Assembly: GCA_951406725.2 (NCBI GenBank)
Contig: OX597814.1
Coordinates: 61,380,001-61,444,000, forward strand
From: Octopus vulgaris
Taxonomy: Eukaryota
Direction: 5' to 3'
DNA length: 64,000 bases
Below the pieces are notes generated by a model, which saw nothing but the letters and a program-made list of their open reading frames with translations, ran no database searches and was not told the origin of the DNA. Numbering within the stretch: position 1 is the first letter of the stretch; each line of letters opens with the position of its first letter. Shown here one piece after another: positions 1,861 through 61,735 of the stretch. Both the position numbers and the translations under genes were made by a program.

Positions 1861-2976
1861 AAGTAAAAGGAAGAGCAATGCTAAGAAAAAACTTCAGTAA
1901 ATAGCAAAGTATGTTTGAAGAGGTTACAGTTACACCATCTTATGTAGTAGCTGCATGGATGATGGAGGGATGAAGCATGATACAGTGTAGGTCAAAAGAA
2001 CCTGAACACTAATGTAGCTCAGTACCACTGGAAGGAACAAAAATGCTAGAAAGTGCCAAAATCATTATGATTTCCAATCAACAGCTGATGAATAGAGAAT
2101 GCTGCAATGCAAACTGTATGTTAGTAAGTTTTGTTTCTAATTTGGGCACAAGGCCAGCACATTTTGAGAGGAGGCTTTTTAGTTGATATTATCGAACTCA
2201 TTACTTGAGTGATATTTTATTTTTACTCAGCTACGGTGTTATATTAGCTATCAATAATGATATTCCCTCTGATTTTTCTGATTTTCAAACCTATTTATCT
2301 AATGTTTATTTATCGACAATGCCGTCCCCAGTCAAATTCCCTCACACCGCTTATTGTCACGTGTCCCTTGACCTCTCTCTCTCTATGTCCCCCCTTCCCA
2401 TAACCATCATCGCCATGGTTCTCTATGCCCCCCCCCCCTTCCCAAAACCATCATCGCCATACATAAAAGAGCGATCGCATTTATCGTTAACCCCACTCGC
2501 TTCAAAATATCTAAAGAATACGCACAGATCATGAATGGCTAAAAGTTAAGTGAATCGTCCAACCTCGCTACGACTACCTTCTTTCTTGCACTTATTCCTA
2601 TTCTTCAATTTCCATCTCATTGTATTGTCCCTCATTCTTTCAGTATTCCCTCATTACCCTGTCTAGCTCAAACATTTTTTTTTTTCGTTTAGACTTGTCT
2701 CCAGGTTCATAGCCACTCTGATTTTTCAATTTTTTGTTTAGTATTGTCTCCCGATTCATACAAACCCATTGCTAGCTCATACGATTAACAGAACCTCTTT
2801 ACTCAGCTACGGTGCACCCGCCCTCCCACCCCCACCACGCATGCCGGAAGTTCCTATTCTCTGCCATTCCGGGGTTGCTTCCCATGAAGACTGCAAATGC
2901 TCTCACCATCCCTACCCCTAGTCTCGACCTATGTAAGGTAATGTTCATACAGTGCAAAATATGAAAGGCTAGCGTT

Positions 2977-4137
2977 ATGCAGGTTGTACTGAAGGCTACT
3001 TTACTACTTCATTTCTTGCACATGAATTCTGCCAAATGCGAGCTTTCTTTTCAGGTACACGAAGCTACTGTCCACCGTCCCAGGGTCTCTAGAGCCCATG
3101 CCTTCCACACCCTCAGGGTTGGCACCCTCAACGTTGGCACTCTGAAAGGTAGGTCTGGTGAGATAGTCGAGATGCTTGAACGGAGATGTGTGGATATATG
3201 TTGCATGCAAGAAATAAGGTGGAGAGGAGGTTCAGCTAGGTTCCTCACAGGCAAGGAACGCAGGTACAAGATTTTCTGGGCAGGGAACACTGACGGGGTT
3301 GGTGGCGTGGGTATACTTATCGCTGAGAAATGGGTAGATAAAGTAATTGAGGTAATCAGAGTATGTGACAGAATACTTAAGATTAGATTAGTGCTTCATC
3401 ATAGTTTAGCAACCATTATATCAGCCTATGCTCCTCAGTCGGGGCTACCCGATGGACAGAAAGACCGATTCTATGACACTCTACTGCAGACTACCTCATT
3501 GACGAACGACAGAGACCTTATCTTTGTGGCTGATGACTTCAATGGTCACGTTGGACGACATGCTGGGGGCTTCCATGGCGTACATGGAGGCTATGGCTAT
3601 GGCTCCCGCAACGAGGAGGGAACCAGGCTGCTGGAGTTCTGCGATGCAAATAATCTTATGATTTGCAACACTAACTTCAGGAAACCTACCAGCCACCTAG
3701 TCACTTACCAATCGGGCCAACATACCAGCCAAATTGACTACATCCTTACAAGGCAAAGGGAGAGATGGCTGCTTATAAATGCCAAAACCTTCCCAGGTGA
3801 AGAATGTACCCCACAACATAGACTGGTAGTTAGTGACTTTAGGATCAGGACTAGGAGGACAACCAGAAGACGACAAATATGGAGAAGAAGGATCTGGAAG
3901 CTTAAAGATCCTGCAAATGGACAGAGATTTAGGGACATATTACTTGAAGCCTCTGACGAAGTAGAAGGGGATAGAGCATCACAGGGGGTAGAAGACAGCT
4001 GGACGTTTCTAAGGGACAACCTGCTGAGAGCCACTGACCAGATCTGTGGCTGGTGCAAAGTCCCCTCTCGACCTAGAATAACGTGGTGGTGGAACAATAT
4101 TGTAGACAGGGCTATTAGAGAAAAGAGACAGGCTTGA
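2977..4137 (+). pseudogene. RTE ORF, APE endonuclease part
   Basis: GTLNV, DICCMQEIRW, GVGILI, SAYAP, DDFNGH (GDFN mutated), QIDYIL, PQHRLV motifs; stop at the deletion junction. Confidence 0.9.
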
Positions 4138-4173
4138 AAGCAACTAATTAGAGAGAGAGTTAGTTTAGATGAG

Positions 4174-5508
4174 ATGCAGTTTGGGTTTGTGCCAGGGAAA
4201 AGTACTACTGATGCTATATTCCTGGTAAGGCAGCTGCAGGAGAAATACCTAGCCAAAGATAAGCCCCTGTACCTGGCTTTTGTTGACATGGAGAAAGCCT
4301 TCGACAGGGTCCCCCGATCCCTTATCTGGTGGGCAATGAGAAAACTAGGGATAGATGAATGGTTAGTGAGAGCTGTGCGGGCCATGTATAGGGACGCCGC
4401 TAGTAGGGTGAGGGTTGGAAATGAGTACAGTGAAGAATTCCGGGTAGAGGTAGGGGTCCACCAAGGCTCAGTACTCAGCCCCCTCCTATTTATCATAGTC
4501 CTCCAGGCAATAACGGAGGAATTCAAGACAGGATGCCCTTGGGAGCTCCTCTATGCTGATGACCTTGCTCTAATTGCTGAGTCGCTATCAGAACTGGAGG
4601 AGAAGTTTCAGGTGTGGAAACAAGGATTAGAATCGAAGGGCCTCAGAGTCAATCTAGCTAAAACCAAAGTCGTAATCAGTAGGAAGGTAGACAAATCACA
4701 AACACCTTCAGGTAGATGGCCCTGCTCGATCTGTAGAAAAGGTGTAGGTAGAAACTCTATAAGATGCACCAAGTGTAAGCTATGGACACATAAGAGATGC
4801 AGCAATGTCAAAGGAAGGCTAACTAGGAAGATGGTTTTTGTATGTGGCAGATGCTCAGGAACAATAAACACTGAAAATGCTCTGAGACCAACTTCCGTCA
4901 CTTTCCAGGGAGAAAAACTAGAAATAGTTGATAGTTTCCGTTACCTAGGTGACCAAGTCAGCAGCGGGGGCGGGTGTGCTGAAAGTGTAACTGCTAGAGT
5001 AAGAATAGCTTGGGCAAAGTTCAGAGAGCTCTTACCTCTGCTGGTGACAAAAGGCCTCTCGCACAGAGTGAAAGGCAGACTGTATGATGCGTGTGTACGA
5101 ACAGCCATGCTACATGGCAGTGAAACATGGGCCGTGACTGCTGAGGATATGCGTAAGCTCGCTAGAAATGAAGCCAGTATGCTCCGATGGATGTGTAATG
5201 CCGGTACTCACACTCGGCAGAGTGTAAGTACCTTGAGAGAAAAGCTGGACCTAAGAAGCATCAGTTGTGGTGTGCAGGAGAGACGTTTGCGCTGGTATGG
5301 TCATGTGGCGAGAATGGATGAAGATAGTTGTGTGAAAAAGTGCCACACCCTAGCGGTTGAGGGAACCTGTGGAAGAGGCAGACCCAGGAAAACCTGGGAC
5401 GAGGTGGTGAAGCACGACCTTCGAACTTTAGGTCTCACTGAGGAAATGACTAGAGACCGAGACCTCTGGAAGTGTGCTGTGCGCGAGAAGACCCGGCAGG
5501 ACAAGTGA
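4174..5508 (+). pseudogene. RTE ORF, reverse transcriptase part with inserted C4HC3 finger
   Basis: QFGF, AFVDMEKAFD, GVHQGSVLSPLLF, LYADD, FRYLG, RLRWYGHV, RGRPRKTW; RT N-terminus missing. Confidence 0.92.
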
Positions 5509-11279: not shown

Positions 11280-12448
11280 GCATGTCAAGTAGTTAACCCG
11301 GTTTTAACTATTATGTCACTTATGTCCCTTCTGGACGATATAAATGTCCAAACTGTCCAACGAATCCCTGATCACGAGATATGTTATGGTCACCTAAATG
11401 TTGGAAATAAATCTTAAGGGGTTAAGTTCCCCGGAGAAGACAACGGGTAGATAATTAATAACACTAGTTCACCTTCGTCGGGACACTTTGACATAGCTGA
11501 AACAAAGTAAGTCCGGAAACGGATATACTTATAAATAATGGGAAATATTAAAGAGAAAAAAAAAGGTGGGTTAGAGGTATAAGATAAAGCGAGAACGTGA
11601 TATTCAAGTAAAGAAAGAAACGGGTAGGAGAGTAATTGTGGGACGAATGTAACGTAGGCTATGACGTCATGGCCGTCCCATCATGCTACAGTAGACAGAG
11701 AAGATACAATGGCTGCTGCAGACGTCTTGCCTCTTAGCACACATTGTCAATGGATCATTATGCTATCCGGACGATGTGATTGATCATCTGCGACTGTTTG
11801 TTTCTAGAGCGAAAGGGCCTATCTTCTGGTCAACTGACAACCATCTTAACTCGCCGATTTGCCTGTTTCTGTTGTAGAAAGGGCGGCCTGTTGTTTGAGT
11901 CGAGTTGGGAAGTCAAAATTTATGATAAGCTAGAAAATTAAGGTAGCCATGATCTAAGCGAGACATTGCGCTACTACCAACACGCAGCGGCTCTCGATAT
12001 ATATATATATAATATCTACTTTAAATCTCTTTACTGCGTCGTTTTCTCTTTCTTCCCTACTATATTTATCTATTCTATATAATTAAGTAAATTTACGTCA
12101 AATTTTATTTCATAAGTTTTGTTTTTTGTTTTTTTTTTGAAGCAAAAAAAAATCATCTTTGGATCAATTACCTGATTTATTCGCTTGAAAAAATCGAAAG
12201 ATTGGAGCTAAGAAACGACAGGGAGATTATAATATTTTAAGATATATATTTCTAAATATATATCGAGAAAGAATTTGATCATTGTTTATTTTTTTTTCTG
12301 TCTACCCTTTCTACTTATTTCTTAAGTTGGAAAGGAATCGTGATAAAGAGTTTGTGGGAGAGGCAAAAATTTCTGAGTAGTAATTACTAATAATAACAAC
12401 AACAATAAGTCTTCAAATAATCACTCAGTGAATACACCATCTGAAGCC
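11280..12448 (+). promoter_or_regulatory. Putative Khc promoter / 5' UTR region
   Basis: Repeat-poor, locally CpG-retaining stretch directly upstream of the ATG; TSS cannot be placed from sequence alone. Confidence 0.55.
11661..11670. promoter_or_regulatory. Consensus CRE (CREB/ATF) palindrome
   Basis: ATGACGTCAT, perfect 10-bp palindrome containing TGACGTCA, ~790 bp upstream of the Khc ATG. Confidence 0.55.
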
Positions 12449-12574
12449 ATGGATGCGTCGTCGGAGTGCAACATTAAAGTCATATGCCGTGTCCGACCCC
12501 TCAACGATGCCGAGGAAAGGGCTGGCAGTAAATTCATCCTCAAGTTCCCCACTGATGATTCTATTTCTATCGCC
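12449..12574 (+). CDS. Khc: Kinesin-1 heavy chain exon 1 (aa 1-42)
   Basis: GCCATGG start context; MDASSECNIKVICRVRPLNDAEERAGSKFILKFPTDDSISIA with kinesin RxRP motif; donor GTAAGT at 12575; phase 0. Confidence 0.97.
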
Positions 12575-27669: not shown

Positions 27670-28814
27670 CTAGGTAGTTTTGCATAGTTCTAAAATTTAT
27701 GCCTTCCTTTTCACTAACAACAATGTACTGCATAGTCCTGAGATTTAAAGAGGCATACATTGTTCTTCAATGTTCTTCCTCAGAAAAAAAAAAGGGTTTA
27801 TTATGTGCAGTTTGGATGTCAACACTATCCAAAAGAAGTCTTGAGCCTTATATTTTTGTATAATCTCCAACAAATCTGTTACAGTCACAACAGGAAAGAG
27901 GCTGCAGCATTAAACTCTCTCATTCACAAAATACTGAACAAAAAGCTTAAATGAAATACATCATAGTGGTGTCCCTGTATGACAACAACAAACAGGTTGA
28001 TACCAGCAAAATACTAAAAAGATATGCATGTATACCTAAAATGAATGAATGAGCAATGTATATGTATGATTTTGATAGTTAATGTAGATTTGTCGTACAG
28101 TTCAGGTACATATTGTTGAAATCCATTGTAGATTAAAATATTGCAAAATAAAGTATTTTGTAAATTAAAGATATCTTGCATATAAATAACTATATGTACT
28201 GTACTTCTTGTCTTGGAAGGAATGGTTTGTTGAAATTCAATTATGGGTAGTAGAACCTTTTTTGATTCTTATTTATCTTTGAAACACAAACAAAATTCCA
28301 TTCAAGTTATTGTTCTTTACGTTCTTCAGTAATTTAAGAAATAGATGGAAGCAGAATTTGTGACACTTGCAGATGAGTTTGGAAATAATCTAATGATATA
28401 AATGCGAAAACTAATTTCTATGTGTCACACTTAGACCCCCCCCTCTCACTATTCAATGACTCTCCTACTATTCCTCATGATGTGGTGAGAGTAATAGTAG
28501 GCATAGAGTGGTGAAGACAGAGAGAGAGAGAAAGACGAAGAAATTTAGGGAGAGTTGATGTTTTATTAAAGTTGTAGTGTTGATGGTGGCAGTGGGAGTA
28601 ATAAAGAGAGAAGGAGGGAGATGATGTACAAATTTGTTTAACCATGTCTCTTTGACAGAAATTCCTGTTGCTAACATACTGAACATTATCATTTTTGTTT
28701 TATTTTTTGCTTTCTTACACACACATAAAATACACTTTAATTGAAATGAAGTTTCCCCAAAATTAACTTATATAATAAATGTGAATGTCAGTGTGTCACA
28801 CTTTTTCAACTTTA

Positions 28815-40199: not shown

Positions 40200-40594
40200 T
40201 GCTAAGGAAATGAAATAGAAAGAAGAATGGTTGTTTTCTGCTGTATTGCTGCTGAACAATGTATATTGACTGGTCTTGGTGTTCTCAGAAGCTTCTAAAT
40301 TGTCTCTCAACTTACTTGTAAAGAACAAACAAATCCCACTCAAATTACATGCTACTATCAACACCTTTCAACATAAATATGTTTGATTGAGGTCAACCTG
40401 ATTTAAATAACTCTCAAATTCTTTGAACCAACAAAAAAAAAAGAAAGACCTGTGCCATTGCTTGACCTGCTAGATATATTAACCAAATTTTCCAAAAAAT
40501 TACACTGTCATCGTAATATGGCAGGGTGTAAAGAACACATCAAAGTTAAATATTACACAAACTAGAAAATTATTCAGAGGGCAGGCTCTTTATA

Positions 40595-40647
<53 letters not shown>

Positions 40648-41088
40648 CAATTGTTACTCTATGTAAAAATTGGTTTGTAGCCATCAGAAAATGGATTTAA
40701 ACCTGAATAGAGGAAGAAAGAAAAGAATGAGTAAAAGTGTATGTGTGTGTGTGTGCGGAAATTGATATGCAGATATTAAATTTATAATCACAAAATTTGT
40801 TTTAATGGTAGTTAAATTGGTCTCCATAGTTTAGCATAATTTGAAGTTTCTGGCATTAAAAGTGATATCTAGAAAAGGGAGCATGTGTACTTCTTTTCAT
40901 ACAATAGATTATTGCCATTTATTTTCATTGAGATGGTGACCATGCTGGATCTGAACTTGGAACTATATTGTGCCACCTATAAAGTAGGGAATTCTTAATT
41001 TTGTACTTCATGTTTACTGAACATAGCAAATGAGAGAATAGCAAAGGTTTTTTTAAAATGCCTGCTGTTACTCTGTATTTGTATATTC

Positions 41089-41295
41089 TAACCCTTTAGC
41101 ATTCATTCATATTACTCTCTCTGTCAAATATAATGCTTATTTATACAAATTGTTTTAAATTAATCATGCATTATTGCGTAGCTTTGAGATTTTTTGTGAT
41201 TGTATATTTTTAAAATAAGGCTGTAAAGGCTAAATCAATCAGTTTGAACATAAAAACAGGTAGAATATTTGGGTTGGATATTGCTAAAGAGTTAA
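41089..41295. mobile_element. piggyBac-like MITE family 2 (diverged)
   Basis: TAACCCTTTAGCATT ... TGCTAAAGAGTTAA. Confidence 0.7.
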
Positions 41296-41608: not shown

Positions 41609-41696
41609 GGGAAAGTATTTGTATTTGACAAGGTTTTGAAGCCTAATGTATCACAAGAATATGTGTACAATGTTGGTGCTAAGCCCATTGTTGCTG
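41609..41696 (+). CDS. Khc: Kinesin-1 heavy chain exon 2 (aa 43-72)
   Basis: Polypyrimidine-TAG acceptor; GKVFVFDKVLKPNVSQEYVYNVGAKPIVA; donor GTAAGT; 88 nt. Confidence 0.97.
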
Positions 41697-51300: not shown

Positions 51301-51768
51301 ACAGAAGACATTAACTACATAAACTGTGTCAAAGCCTTTATCATTCAACCTATTTTCTCCTGTATAAAATATGACTTTAACATTAGTATATATCATAATG
51401 TGCTTAATTACATGAATTATCTTTGAATAAACCCTCATCTTCTCAGAAAGAGAAAAATTAAAGCTAAAAATTTGTTAAATGCTTGTTAAATATAGGTTGG
51501 TGGTATGCTGAAATTGTAGCTCTACTTTGACATTTAGCCAGATAATTTAGCTACTGTTTGCTCTTCAGAAGATATGCTTCAAATATATTTAGCTTTCATT
51601 GCAATGAAGTTGGAATGGTTAAGCTATTAGAGAATAATGACTTGGCTTTAGAAGTTTTCTGTTTTTTTCTTCATATATTGTTGAAGATGTTATTTCATGT
51701 AAGTAAGAAATGATCTATGTAATAAAATATTTTTCATTTATTTGATTTATTCTTTTGTTTCTCTTTAA

Positions 51769-51912
<144 letters not shown>

Positions 51913-52891
51913 TAATAATTGAAATTTGTTAAAATAAGCAGATACATACACATTTGCAATGGTCTTCATAATTACAGGTGTGAAAGTAGGTATGGAAGAA
52001 AAAGGAAAACACGAGAAATGAACCTGAAAATGATACTTTGTCTAGTAGCTTATAAAACAAAGCGTTATAGGAAATAATTCTTTATAGAAATACCTATATA
52101 ATTAAGATAATGCAAGAAACCCTACAGATCTATAATATGTTGGATACCTTTACAATATAACTTTTCATGTTTTAGAAGCAACAAACTGATGAAAGACTTC
52201 AAAAAATTATGAATATAAATTTATATACATTCTTTCAAATGTTTGCTTTGACAAAGGTCTACTGCAACAAAAGTCTGCATATTAAAAGGGCACTTACAAC
52301 TATCTTGTAAACTTGAGAATAATGTCAATATTGATAGAAAGTATATCTTTATTCTGGCTTATGCCATGAAGGTATAATAACTTTATATGGTAGTGTATTT
52401 ATGCTAAAATTATATACAGTTCCATAAACAGATAATTATTAAAACTACTACTAATATTGAGTTCACAAACACATTCCAACACAAGAACATGGTTGAAACT
52501 TTGGCATCAAAATCTCCAGCATAGTTGTTTGAGGTTGAAATAGAAAATTATGTACTATTGTGCAGATTTACTGCCCAGCAAATGCAAGACGAATTGTTCA
52601 TTTAAAGTCAGTGAGAAAGAGAATATGTACAGACAACTACTTCGAAACTTACTGTATCTTCAGTTAGATCATAAATTCATTTTGCAGTTGCATTTGATAA
52701 CATCAATGAGAGAGAGACTTTTGAAAAGTTAAGTTCAACTTTTGTTCTTTAGGTCTAGGTCCATCATAATGAAACGGACTTATAGTCAAAGACATTACAG
52801 TTGTGGCAAACTTGTCTTTCTCCCATATATAGTGTTTGGTTCTATATTATCTAGAGTCTCCTTTACTTAAGAAAGTAGTAAATTTTCTTAA

Positions 52892-53112
52892 CCCTTTCGT
52901 TACTGTATTTATTTTGAGATGCTCTGTGTTTCTTTCAATTATTTTAAATATAACAAAGAATTGAGTAAAATAACATAGTTATCATTCAGCAAGTATTATG
53001 AACATAAATTGTGACTAAGGTTTGGTGGTATATTTTAATGCAAAACTTATGAAAACAAGACATTTGTATTACAGAGCCAGAGCCGGTTTTGGCCGGGTTG
53101 GTAACGAAAGGG
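52892..53112. mobile_element. piggyBac-like MITE family 1, intact termini
   Basis: TTAA|CCCTTTCGTTAC ... GTAACGAAAGGG|TTAA: perfect 12-bp TIR and TTAA TSD. Confidence 0.9.
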
Positions 53113-53202
53113 TTAATTACAAATCAATACCTTTTGTATGATGAATTAAAAGATTCCTCTTGCAATAAAGTACATTTGTTGCAATACAGTATGTCATGTT
53201 AA

Positions 53203-53421
53203 CCCTTTAGTATTTAAACCGGCCATATCCGGCCAAAATATTTAATCTGTTTTATGTTCAAACTGACCAGATCCAGGCCCTCACACCTACCCTACAATGT
53301 TATTCTACATTAAGTAATTATACCATCAAGATCTTGAAGATATGAGATAATGCATGATTAATTCAAATCAATGGGAATCAATAAGCATTATGTTTGATAG
53401 AATAATCTGAACACTAAAGGG
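53203..53421. mobile_element. piggyBac-like MITE family 2, intact termini
   Basis: TTAA|CCCTTTAGT ... ACTAAAGGG|TTAA. Confidence 0.88.
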
Positions 53422-53682
53422 TTAAGATGAAGCAAGTGATTTAACATTTGTAGCCTTTGTAACTTTTATAGACCATAAGTGTAAATACACAAAACACACA
53501 CACTTGATGAGTTTTTTTCAGTTTCTATATACTAAATTCATCAAGAAGACATTAATTGGCCCATGATTATAATGGAAGAGACTTTCCCAAAGTGCTGCTT
53601 GGTGGAACATTTTAACTTTTTAACCACACAACCATACTTACATCTACACAGCAATGCTGTGTGTGTGTACACACACACACAC

Positions 53683-54833
53683 ATTCATCATAGTCCTCCA
53701 GGCAATAATAGAGGAATTCAAAACAGGCTGTTGATGACCTTGCTCTTATAGCTAAGTCACTACCAGAACTAGAGAAGAAGTTAACCTAGCAAAAACCAAA
53801 GTCTTAGTAAGTAGGAAGGCAGACAAATCACATATCCCTGCAGGTAGATGGCCCTGCTCGATCTGTAGAAAAGGCGTAGGTAGAAACTCCATAAGATGTA
53901 CTCAGTGTAAGCTATGGACACATATGAGGTGCAGCAATATCAAAGGAAAGTTAACCGGGAAGATAGTTTTGTGTGGCAGATGCACAGGGGCAATAAACAC
54001 TGAAGATGTGCAGAAAACAGTTTCCATCACATGTCACGGGGGAAAAACTAGAAGTAGTTGATTGCTTCCATTACCTAGGTGACCAAGTCAGTCGCAGGGG
54101 TGGATGCCCTGAGCGCATAGCTGCTAGAATAAGAATAGCAGGGTAAAGTTCAGAGAGCTCCTACCCCTGCTGGTAACAAAGGGCCTCTCGCTCAGAATGA
54201 AAGGTAGACTGTATGATGCCTTACTACATGGCAGTGAAACATGGGCTTTGACTGCTGAGGACATGCGTAGGCTTGAAAGAAATGAAGCTATTGTTCTCTG
54301 CTGGATGTGTAATGTCAGTGTGCATGCACGACTGAAAGAAAAGTTGCACATAAGCATTAGATGGAGTGTGCAACACAGACAACTGCACTGGTATAGTCAT
54401 GTGTTGCGTATGGATGATGACAGCTGTGTGAAGAAGTGTGATACCCTAATAGTGGAGGGAACCTGTGGAAAAGGTAAACCCAGGAAGACCTGGGATGAGG
54501 TGATGAAGCACGACCTTCGAATGTTGGGCCTTACAGAGGCAATGACAAGCAACCAAGACCTTTGGAGATATGCTGTTCTTGAGAAAATCTGGCAAGCCAA
54601 GTGAGATCATAGTTGTGGCCGATGCCAGTGCTACCTGACTGGCACCCGTACTGGTGGCATATAAAGAGCATCTACTACACTCTCGAAGTGGTTGGCAATA
54701 GGTAGGGCATCCAGCTGTAGAAACCTTGCCAAATCAGATTGGAGCCTGGTGCAGCCTCCTGGCTTGCCAGTCCTCAATCAAACCATCTAACCCATGCCAG
54801 CATAGAAAGCAGACGTTAAACAATAACGATGAT
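53683..54833 (+). mobile_element. 5'-truncated RTE LINE (same family as 2222-6077) in Khc intron 3
   Basis: Colinear with 4490-6060 including the C4HC3 finger, HGSETW and GKPRKTW, with frameshifts; shared 3' tail. Confidence 0.92.
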
Positions 54834-57918: not shown

Positions 57919-58023
57919 GGTGTCCTTGGTAAACCCTCAATGCACGGTATCATTCCACGTATTGTGCAAGATATCTTTAATTACATTTATGGGATGGATG
58001 AGAACTTGGAATTTCATATCAAG
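57919..58023 (+). CDS. Khc: Kinesin-1 heavy chain exon 4 (aa 97-131)
   Basis: [35 protein letters not shown]; TAG acceptor, GTAAGA donor; 105 nt. Confidence 0.97.
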
Positions 58024-59195: not shown

Positions 59196-59312
59196 GTATG
59201 TGAAAATTTATGCCAAAATTCTCATTTATCCAAATATTTTACCTATCTTATTGAAATTTATATTTTTATTGTATTTTCTAAATTTTGAAATTTATTATCT
59301 TTTGTTTTAAAG

Positions 59313-59400
59313 GGAGCAACAGAGAGATTTGTATCAAGCCCCGAAGAGGTTATGGAGGTCATAGATGAAGGCAAAAACAACAGACACGTAGCTGTGACAA
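59313..59400 (+). CDS. Khc: Kinesin-1 heavy chain exon 7 (aa 167-196)
   Basis: [29 protein letters not shown]; AAG acceptor, GTAAGT donor; 88 nt. Confidence 0.97.
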
Positions 59401-59828: not shown

Positions 59829-60029
<201 letters not shown>

Positions 60030-61586: not shown

Positions 61587-61735
61587 AAATCACATGTACC
61601 ATACAGAGATAGTAAATTAACCAGAATTTTGCAAGAAAGTTTGGGTGGTAACGCCCGAACTACAATGGTTATCTGTTGCTCCCCTGCCTCTTATAATGAA
61701 TCTGAGACAAAATCCACTTTACTTTTTGGTCAAAG
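61587..61735 (+). CDS. Khc: Kinesin-1 heavy chain exon 10 (aa 273-322)
   Basis: [50 protein letters not shown]; CAG acceptor, GTAAGC donor; 149 nt. Confidence 0.98.

Follow-up and report, generated by a model that had tools for sequence, protein, structure and literature searches.

Candidate long-range editing guides in intron 1 of the kinesin-1 gene of Octopus vulgaris

The kinesin-1 locus

The window, a stretch of 64,000 nucleotides of O. vulgaris DNA that was analysed as a whole, contains exons 1-11 of the kinesin-1 heavy chain gene on the + strand, while exons 12-23 follow in the neighbouring stretches downstream. The gene is AT-rich and extends over 52 kb, of which intron 1 takes up 29 kb and intron 2 another 10 kb. 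The protein matches the O. vulgaris and O. sinensis entries and differs from that of O. bimaculoides at residues 67 and 100. Three exons are considered in detail:

11679..12574, + strand, exon 1, with the ATG at 12449 and a 5'UTR of at least 770 nt by spliced RNA contigs
41609..41696, + strand, exon 2, with the K67 codon at 41681-41683; enclosed by the duplex between intron 1 and exon 3 described below
51770..51843, + strand, exon 3, with the S75 adenosine at 51778, the Y77 adenosine at 51785 and the paired stretch at 51779-51806

A51778 is the first base of codon 75 (AGT), and A51785 is the second base of codon 77 (TAC). The joint between exons 1 and 2 is present in spliced RNA contigs from three of the four runs.

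The window also holds several repeats. The segment 36258-36324 contains a 19-bp and a 14-bp complement of exon 7 (59347-59387) and belongs to an element that we take to be a copy of an octopus SINE. The segments 41085-41295 and 52888-53233 represent a high-copy element with inverted ends and thousands of matching contigs, presumably MITE-like, and an inverted copy of 52888-53116 lies 20 kb farther downstream. Long reading frames at 2965-5508 and a broken fragment at 53756-54604, in intron 3, resemble what we take to be the endonuclease and reverse transcriptase of a non-LTR retrotransposon.

Recoding of kinesin-1 in cephalopods

The codons of cephalopod kinesin-1 reported to be recoded are K67, S75, Y77, N117, K166, K281/282, K368, K479, and K483 (Rangan and Reck-Peterson, bioRxiv 10.1101/2022.09.25.509396). 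In the available text of that preprint, Y77C is given for O. bimaculoides, squid, and cuttlefish, S75G for squid variants only, and edits of N117 for squid and cuttlefish, and the only site listed for O. vulgaris is K281/282, with the proviso that the supplements may list species for each site. The Y77C and N117 variants alter the run length of kinesin and are preferred in the cold in squid (bioRxiv 10.1101/2022.09.25.509396). The earlier note on this DNA, which gave S75G and Y77C as recoding events of squid kinesin-1, was correct for squid, but in this source neither is listed for O. vulgaris.

Among the 15 protein cluster members listed (22 read), which were examined for edited residues in proteins derived from transcripts, C77 occurs only in the squid Swiss-Prot entry, which confirms the edit for squid only, and none carries G75 or a changed N117. 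No cephalopod fragment was present among the 120 shorter proteins listed. Rows for kinesin were absent from the supplements of PMC8382921, PMC9699675 (all but one file), PMC7192619, PMC9068888, and PMC6881472, and the supplement of PMC4384741 held one unrelated squid site. In a literature search, outside of which lay two Cell papers, no ECS of cephalopod kinesin-1 was named by any paper returned.

A complement of exon 3 in intron 1

The earlier note had proposed that a short stretch of intron 1, here called the box, acts as an ECS for S75 and Y77, with an A.C mismatch exactly at the S75 adenosine. All of the pairs that it listed are present in the sequence, and the duplex proved to be longer than described there. 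Its parts are:

40660..40684, + strand, box core; 13 bp plus 10 bp complementary to exon 3; candidate ECS for Y77 and S75
40685..40687, + strand, C opposite A51778 and two weak pairs; frayed in models
40715..40732, + strand, purine-rich extension of the box, of low complexity; pairs with the intron-2 pyrimidine tract
51745..51762, + strand, pyrimidine tract of intron 2 with which 40715-40732 pairs; lies directly upstream of the exon-3 acceptor

Within the core, 40660-40672 pairs with 51806-51794 (13 bp, one U.G), and a 2x5 loop leads on to 10 bp between 40675-40684 and 51788-51779, of which the final U.G pair is absent from the earlier note. The Y77 adenosine lies inside this 23-bp duplex, and the S75 adenosine lies one base past its end. 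Measured against an ECS stem of at least 20 bp with bulges of at most 8 nt that holds the target adenosine, the pairing over Y77 has 23 bp and a 5x2 loop. The extension adds pairs between 40715-40732 and 51762-51745 at 17 of 18 positions, so that box and extension together reach about -47 to -48 kcal/mol with exon 3 and the tract.

The box and exon 3 lie on the + strand of one transcription unit, 11.1 kb apart and on either side of exon 2; removal of intron 2 reduces this distance to about 1 kb. In a genome search the box was single-copy, and the only match elsewhere was one of 40 nt to its downstream flank. The box showed 0 differences over 107 nt in one of two other organisms, a comparison with no power to test its conservation because both are about 99% identical to the window throughout. 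RNA contigs covered the box in neither of two runs, which is uninformative since exon 2 was likewise uncovered in the same search and yet was found in the same runs by another search. A (TA)27 repeat occupies 40591-40644, 15 nt upstream of the box, and 40750-40764, 90 nt downstream of it, forms a second, G.U-rich complement of 15 bp to 51794-51808 that is a rival in folds.

The mismatch at S75 requires a more cautious description. C40685 does stand opposite A51778 and by the letters is followed by one A-U and one G.U pair, but in folding models these two outer pairs do not form and A51778 is 79% unpaired, so that what had been described as a mismatch within the duplex appears to be a frayed helix end. 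If A51778 is read as G, the duplex becomes 4.5 kcal/mol stronger. In ADAR targets, an A.C mismatch inside a duplex, with helices on both sides, is favoured and is not required. As modelled, the mismatch is a weak argument for editing of S75. The S75 adenosine is in a UAG context and that of Y77 in a UAC context, and the established neighbour preferences of ADAR can account for the choice of these two adenosines without a mismatch.

Rarity of the pairing and a second box over N117

Whether the pairing with exon 3 exceeds chance depends on the yardstick. A strict metric, chosen after the box duplex had been seen, counts two contiguous helices with at most one G.U each and a loop of at most 5. 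By this count the 23 bp of the box were reached in none of 200 shuffles and in none of 24 unrelated 50-kb blocks, the best of which had 19. Looser scores are less favourable. Under three alignment schemes the box was matched or beaten by 14-16 of 60 shuffles, and with the 5'UTR left out its alignment score was reached in 17-39 of 150 shuffled genes for the 41-nt core, in 83-150 of 150 for the whole of exon 3, and in 1-20 of 150 for tract plus exon. Overall, looser scores are equalled in 11-27% or more of the shuffles. By RNAduplex, again with the 5'UTR left out, the box ranked 12th of 2566 windows as a partner of the whole of exon 3. For the 41-nt core, likewise with the 5'UTR left out, it was the best partner in the gene, first of 5138 windows. 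With the extended target it ranked first of 2082 (-46.3, against an antisense best of -40.2).

The strict metric, run unchanged over the whole gene, found, independently of the site picked in the earlier note, a second two-helix duplex of 23 bp, which joins 57963-57990 in exon 4 to 28160-28182 in intron 1, 30 kb upstream. Its main helix is formed by:

28163..28182, + strand, second intron-1 box; 20-bp helix with exon 4, of which 18 are perfect Watson-Crick pairs; covers both adenosines of N117
57963..57982, + strand, exon-4 partner of the second box; N117 codon at 57979-57981

No other single helix in the gene is as strong: it has 20 bp, whereas for exon 4 the best single helix seen in 25 shuffles, as in 24 real blocks, had 14. 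Under the three alignment schemes it was equalled in 0, 1, and 6 of 60 shuffles, so that it passed two of the three, and it is single-copy. In a tethered fold it kept 14 of its 20 pairs. The N117 box is more robust than the exon-3 box. The two intron-1 duplexes are nested (28163, then 40660, then exon 3, then exon 4), so they could form simultaneously.

Among the 1054 coding adenosines of the gene, just 19 lie in 23-bp duplexes, and all of these are in the S75/Y77 and N117 duplexes. Three exons of this gene have pairings of at least 22 bp, and more than one such exon occurred in none of the 24 real blocks. The strict scores at other published codons were 20 for K282, 19 for K166, and 18 each for K67 and K368. 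With Y77 excluded, five published codons sum to 98 (shuffles, 84.2+-2.7; 0/40), a value reached by none of the 24 real blocks (best 91), and permutation over random adenosines gave p values of 0.011-0.012. An out-of-sample test of K479, K483, and D515 that had been set beforehand failed: all three score 16, which is below the median, and 194, 197, and 175 of 200 shuffles, respectively, did as well. When these sites are added, the enrichment without Y77 has p values of 0.007-0.03, and it rests mostly on N117.

Two further pairings were found in other introns:

53453..53553, + strand, intron-3 box; pairs with exon 8 (59874-59971) through three colinear helices, the central one of 22 bp
59280..59300, + strand, intron-6 stretch; 20-bp two-helix complement over K282 (61607-61629), of weak energy

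The intron-3 box faces residues 206-237 of exon 8 and would predict editable adenosines around N216-K223; to our knowledge, no edit site has been reported there. The pairing of the intron-6 stretch with K282 did not form in a contiguous fold.

Guides or chance complements

Stretches of intron 1 thus complement exons exactly at codons that are recoded in related cephalopods, and for this reason they may well be long-range editing guides. The reading that we tentatively prefer is that 40660-40732 is one of a few ECSs in the 29-kb intron 1 that present Y77, S75, and N117 to ADAR. The analysis shows the complementarity, how it ranks within the gene, and that it coincides with codons that other coleoids recode, whereas we infer that intron 1 is removed late. 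The guides would fold back on the downstream exons while intron 1 is still attached. As long as intron 2 is in place, the exon-3 pyrimidine tract would be covered by the box as well, and splicing there would be delayed; once intron 2 has been removed, the box would lie about 1 kb from S75. Y77 would sit within the helix and S75 at its end, facing C, in which case editing of S75 would lengthen the helix.

It is somewhat unlikely, though a serious alternative, that the boxes are chance matches in an AT-rich gene of 52 kb or inert inverted scraps of exons left by DNA repair. The loose scores given above, which are at chance level, are what such an origin would produce, as is the failure of the test of K479, K483, and D515. 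In addition, when a single 23-bp match is allowed for any of the 11 exons, it appears in 1 of 34 shuffles and 1 of 24 unrelated blocks. The extension is a low-complexity purine/pyrimidine pairing, and 60 unrelated 10-kb strands, scanned with a coarser step, reach -44.3 compared with -48 for the box. The N117 match has a blastn E value of 0.3 in the comparison of the gene with itself and includes a 10-nt palindrome. On the other hand, both of the best duplexes fall on published recoding codons, and the spacers between helices are unequal on the two sides (16 vs 30 nt for exon 3), unlike in a simple copy. The same blastn comparison gave no colinear intron-intron antisense matches such as would mark a decayed inverted duplication of the gene, and this origin was rejected. 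Its matches touching exons had no strand bias, five being on the minus and five on the plus strand.

Predicted structures formed by exons alone

A different possibility is that S75 and Y77 are edited after splicing on a structure made by exons alone, the intron box being idle or secondary. Two such structures are predicted in spliced mRNA. One of them involves a stretch of the 5'UTR:

12363..12406, + strand, 5'UTR stretch; in spliced mRNA predicted to bridge the exon 2/3 junction by a pairing of 36 bp that includes S75 and Y77

Its predicted partners are 41687-41696 and 51770-51803. The duplex covers S75 and Y77 with a P of 0.8-0.99 in all folds of spliced mRNA that include the UTR, with varied UTR lengths and temperatures, and no other stem in the 5' 700 nt is as long (36 bp, the next being 18). 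The stretch 12363-12406 occurs in spliced contigs running into exon 2 in three of four runs, and hence this partner is present in the mature mRNA. The other structure is a hairpin at the junction, in which 41671-41689 pairs with 41696 plus 51770-51787 (-11.8 kcal/mol), placing K67 opposite S75 and reaching Y77. It is possible only after removal of intron 2 and has a P of 0.78 at 20 C. Moreover, the K282R adenosine 61615, at a site that is listed for O. vulgaris, is predicted to face C60940 in a helix that spans the exon 9/10 junction once the mRNA is spliced. Editing of exonic structures also agrees with the editing of mature squid mRNAs in vitro (PMC7192619) and with the conservation of 100-200 nt of mRNA at coleoid sites (PMC8891338).

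However, the significance of the UTR duplex is modest. An equally long stem over both sites was found in 5 of 237 shuffles, its energy was equalled in 4 of 300, 7 of 60, and 4 of 80 shuffles, and against the full UTR the S75/Y77 window of the coding sequence ranks just 5th of 63. Part of the helix is an AAT/AAC microsatellite. Because S75 and Y77 find a folding partner even without the UTR, such folds appear to be cheap. The contigs, which drop variants, contain no A-to-G changes in the UTR. Editing on exons alone is considered improbable as the main route. It does not exclude the intron box, since one would act before splicing and the other after it. In folds of spliced mRNA, K67 lies in an adjoining helix of exon 1. 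The UTR duplex encloses the region of the start codon, where an effect on translation is possible. There is also an antisense match to 12363-12408 just downstream of exon 13 (1809-1851 of the neighbouring stretch L003; blastn E 0.025), which may be driven by the microsatellite.

In folding models, the prevailing partner varies with the stage of splicing. In tethered unspliced pieces, a setting that ignores 11-30 kb of competing RNA, the box takes exon 3 with a P of about 1 against the UTR, a stretch of intron 3, and a local hairpin. The intron-3 stretch (52580-52619, -25.8) and the local hairpin of the pyrimidine tract were both rejected as partners of exon 3, having been beaten by the intron-1 box in this fold. 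When the intermediate lacking intron 2 is folded as one contiguous piece, the box has two competitors, the second register at 40750-40764 and the junction hairpin. Pairing of Y77 with the box is then unstable and has a P of 0.36 at 37 C, whereas at 20 C the box is displaced from Y77 by the junction hairpin; with exon 4 joined, the P is 0.72 at 25 C.

That the duplex serves splicing, masking the exon-3 pyrimidine tract and looping out exon 2 with editing only incidental, is very improbable: the extension does cover 51745-51762, directly upstream of the exon-3 acceptor, but most of the pairing of the N117 and exon-8 boxes is with the interior of exons, exon 1 is joined to exon 2 in all three covering runs, and skipping of the 88-nt exon 2 would shift the frame.

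Comparison with known editing substrates

Intronic ECSs are known for ADAR recoding sites in GRIA2, GRIK2, and FLNB (Licht et al., 2019, PMC6724681). The proposed pairing of the intron-1 boxes is similar in that an exon adenosine would be matched with an intron stretch of the same pre-mRNA, so that editing must precede removal of the intron. In contrast, the ECSs of these genes lie in the adjacent upstream or downstream intron, whereas the candidate boxes are two or three introns upstream, at 11 and 30 kb, and pair across coding exons. Distal intronic ECSs have also been predicted in Drosophila (Ramaswami et al., 2015, PMC4573499) and human (Gabay et al., 2022, PMC8897444), and the latter study described partners up to 15 kb downstream that derive from inverted paralogs. 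The stem rule used there (at least 20 bp, bulges of at most 8 nt, holding the edited adenosine) also fits Y77 and N117. These searches reached no farther than 2.5 kb and 10 kb to either side, respectively, and both boxes lie beyond that. The Drosophila search further demanded conservation.

The cephalopod substrates described so far are of another kind. The ADAR substrates of the squid K+ channel and Na+/K+ ATPase are exonic, and squid ADAR2 is cytoplasmic and edits mature mRNAs, as seen with mature squid mRNAs in vitro (Vallecillo-Viejo et al., 2020, PMC7192619). Around coleoid sites, 100-200 nt of mRNA are conserved (Moldovan et al., 2022, PMC8891338). These examples come from the same enzyme system and the same animals, fit the 5'UTR duplex and the junction hairpin, and, unlike the candidate intron-1 boxes, need no intron. 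Studies of cephalopod editing have mostly left introns aside, and rare effects over long range may escape them (Moldovan et al., 2022, PMC8891338). The available text on recoding of kinesin-1 treats the same gene and codons, describes no RNA structures, and contains the words 'intron' and 'dsRNA' 0 times (Rangan and Reck-Peterson, bioRxiv 10.1101/2022.09.25.509396). Overall, the intron-1 box would work like the ECSs of GRIA2 and GRIK2, but it is not filed here as a member of the intronic ECSs because it is not in an adjacent intron within a few kb, its mismatch is not internal, and it is a candidate with respect to editing, conservation, and necessity.

Conclusions

In conclusion, the proposal of an ECS acting over 11 kb gains from the second intron-1 box over N117 and from the enrichment at recoded codons without Y77. 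It loses from the weakness of the A.C mismatch and from the exonic structures that cover both sites. A bolder and rather doubtful extension is that intron 1 of coleoid kinesin-1 is an editing scaffold, whose nested guides would reach over 11 and 30 kb onto S75/Y77 and N117, the order of intron removal then setting which recoded variants are made.

The structures that direct recoding in cephalopods, at tens of thousands of sites, are largely open, and work so far has been based on mRNA sequence and has passed over introns. The kinesin-1 gene offers named competing structures, namely two intron-1 boxes, a 5'UTR duplex, and a junction hairpin. Guides so far upstream, if real, would be out of reach of all standard ECS searches and might account for some of the recoding in cephalopods. 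Should the boxes hold, recoding and the order of splicing would be linked over tens of kilobases.
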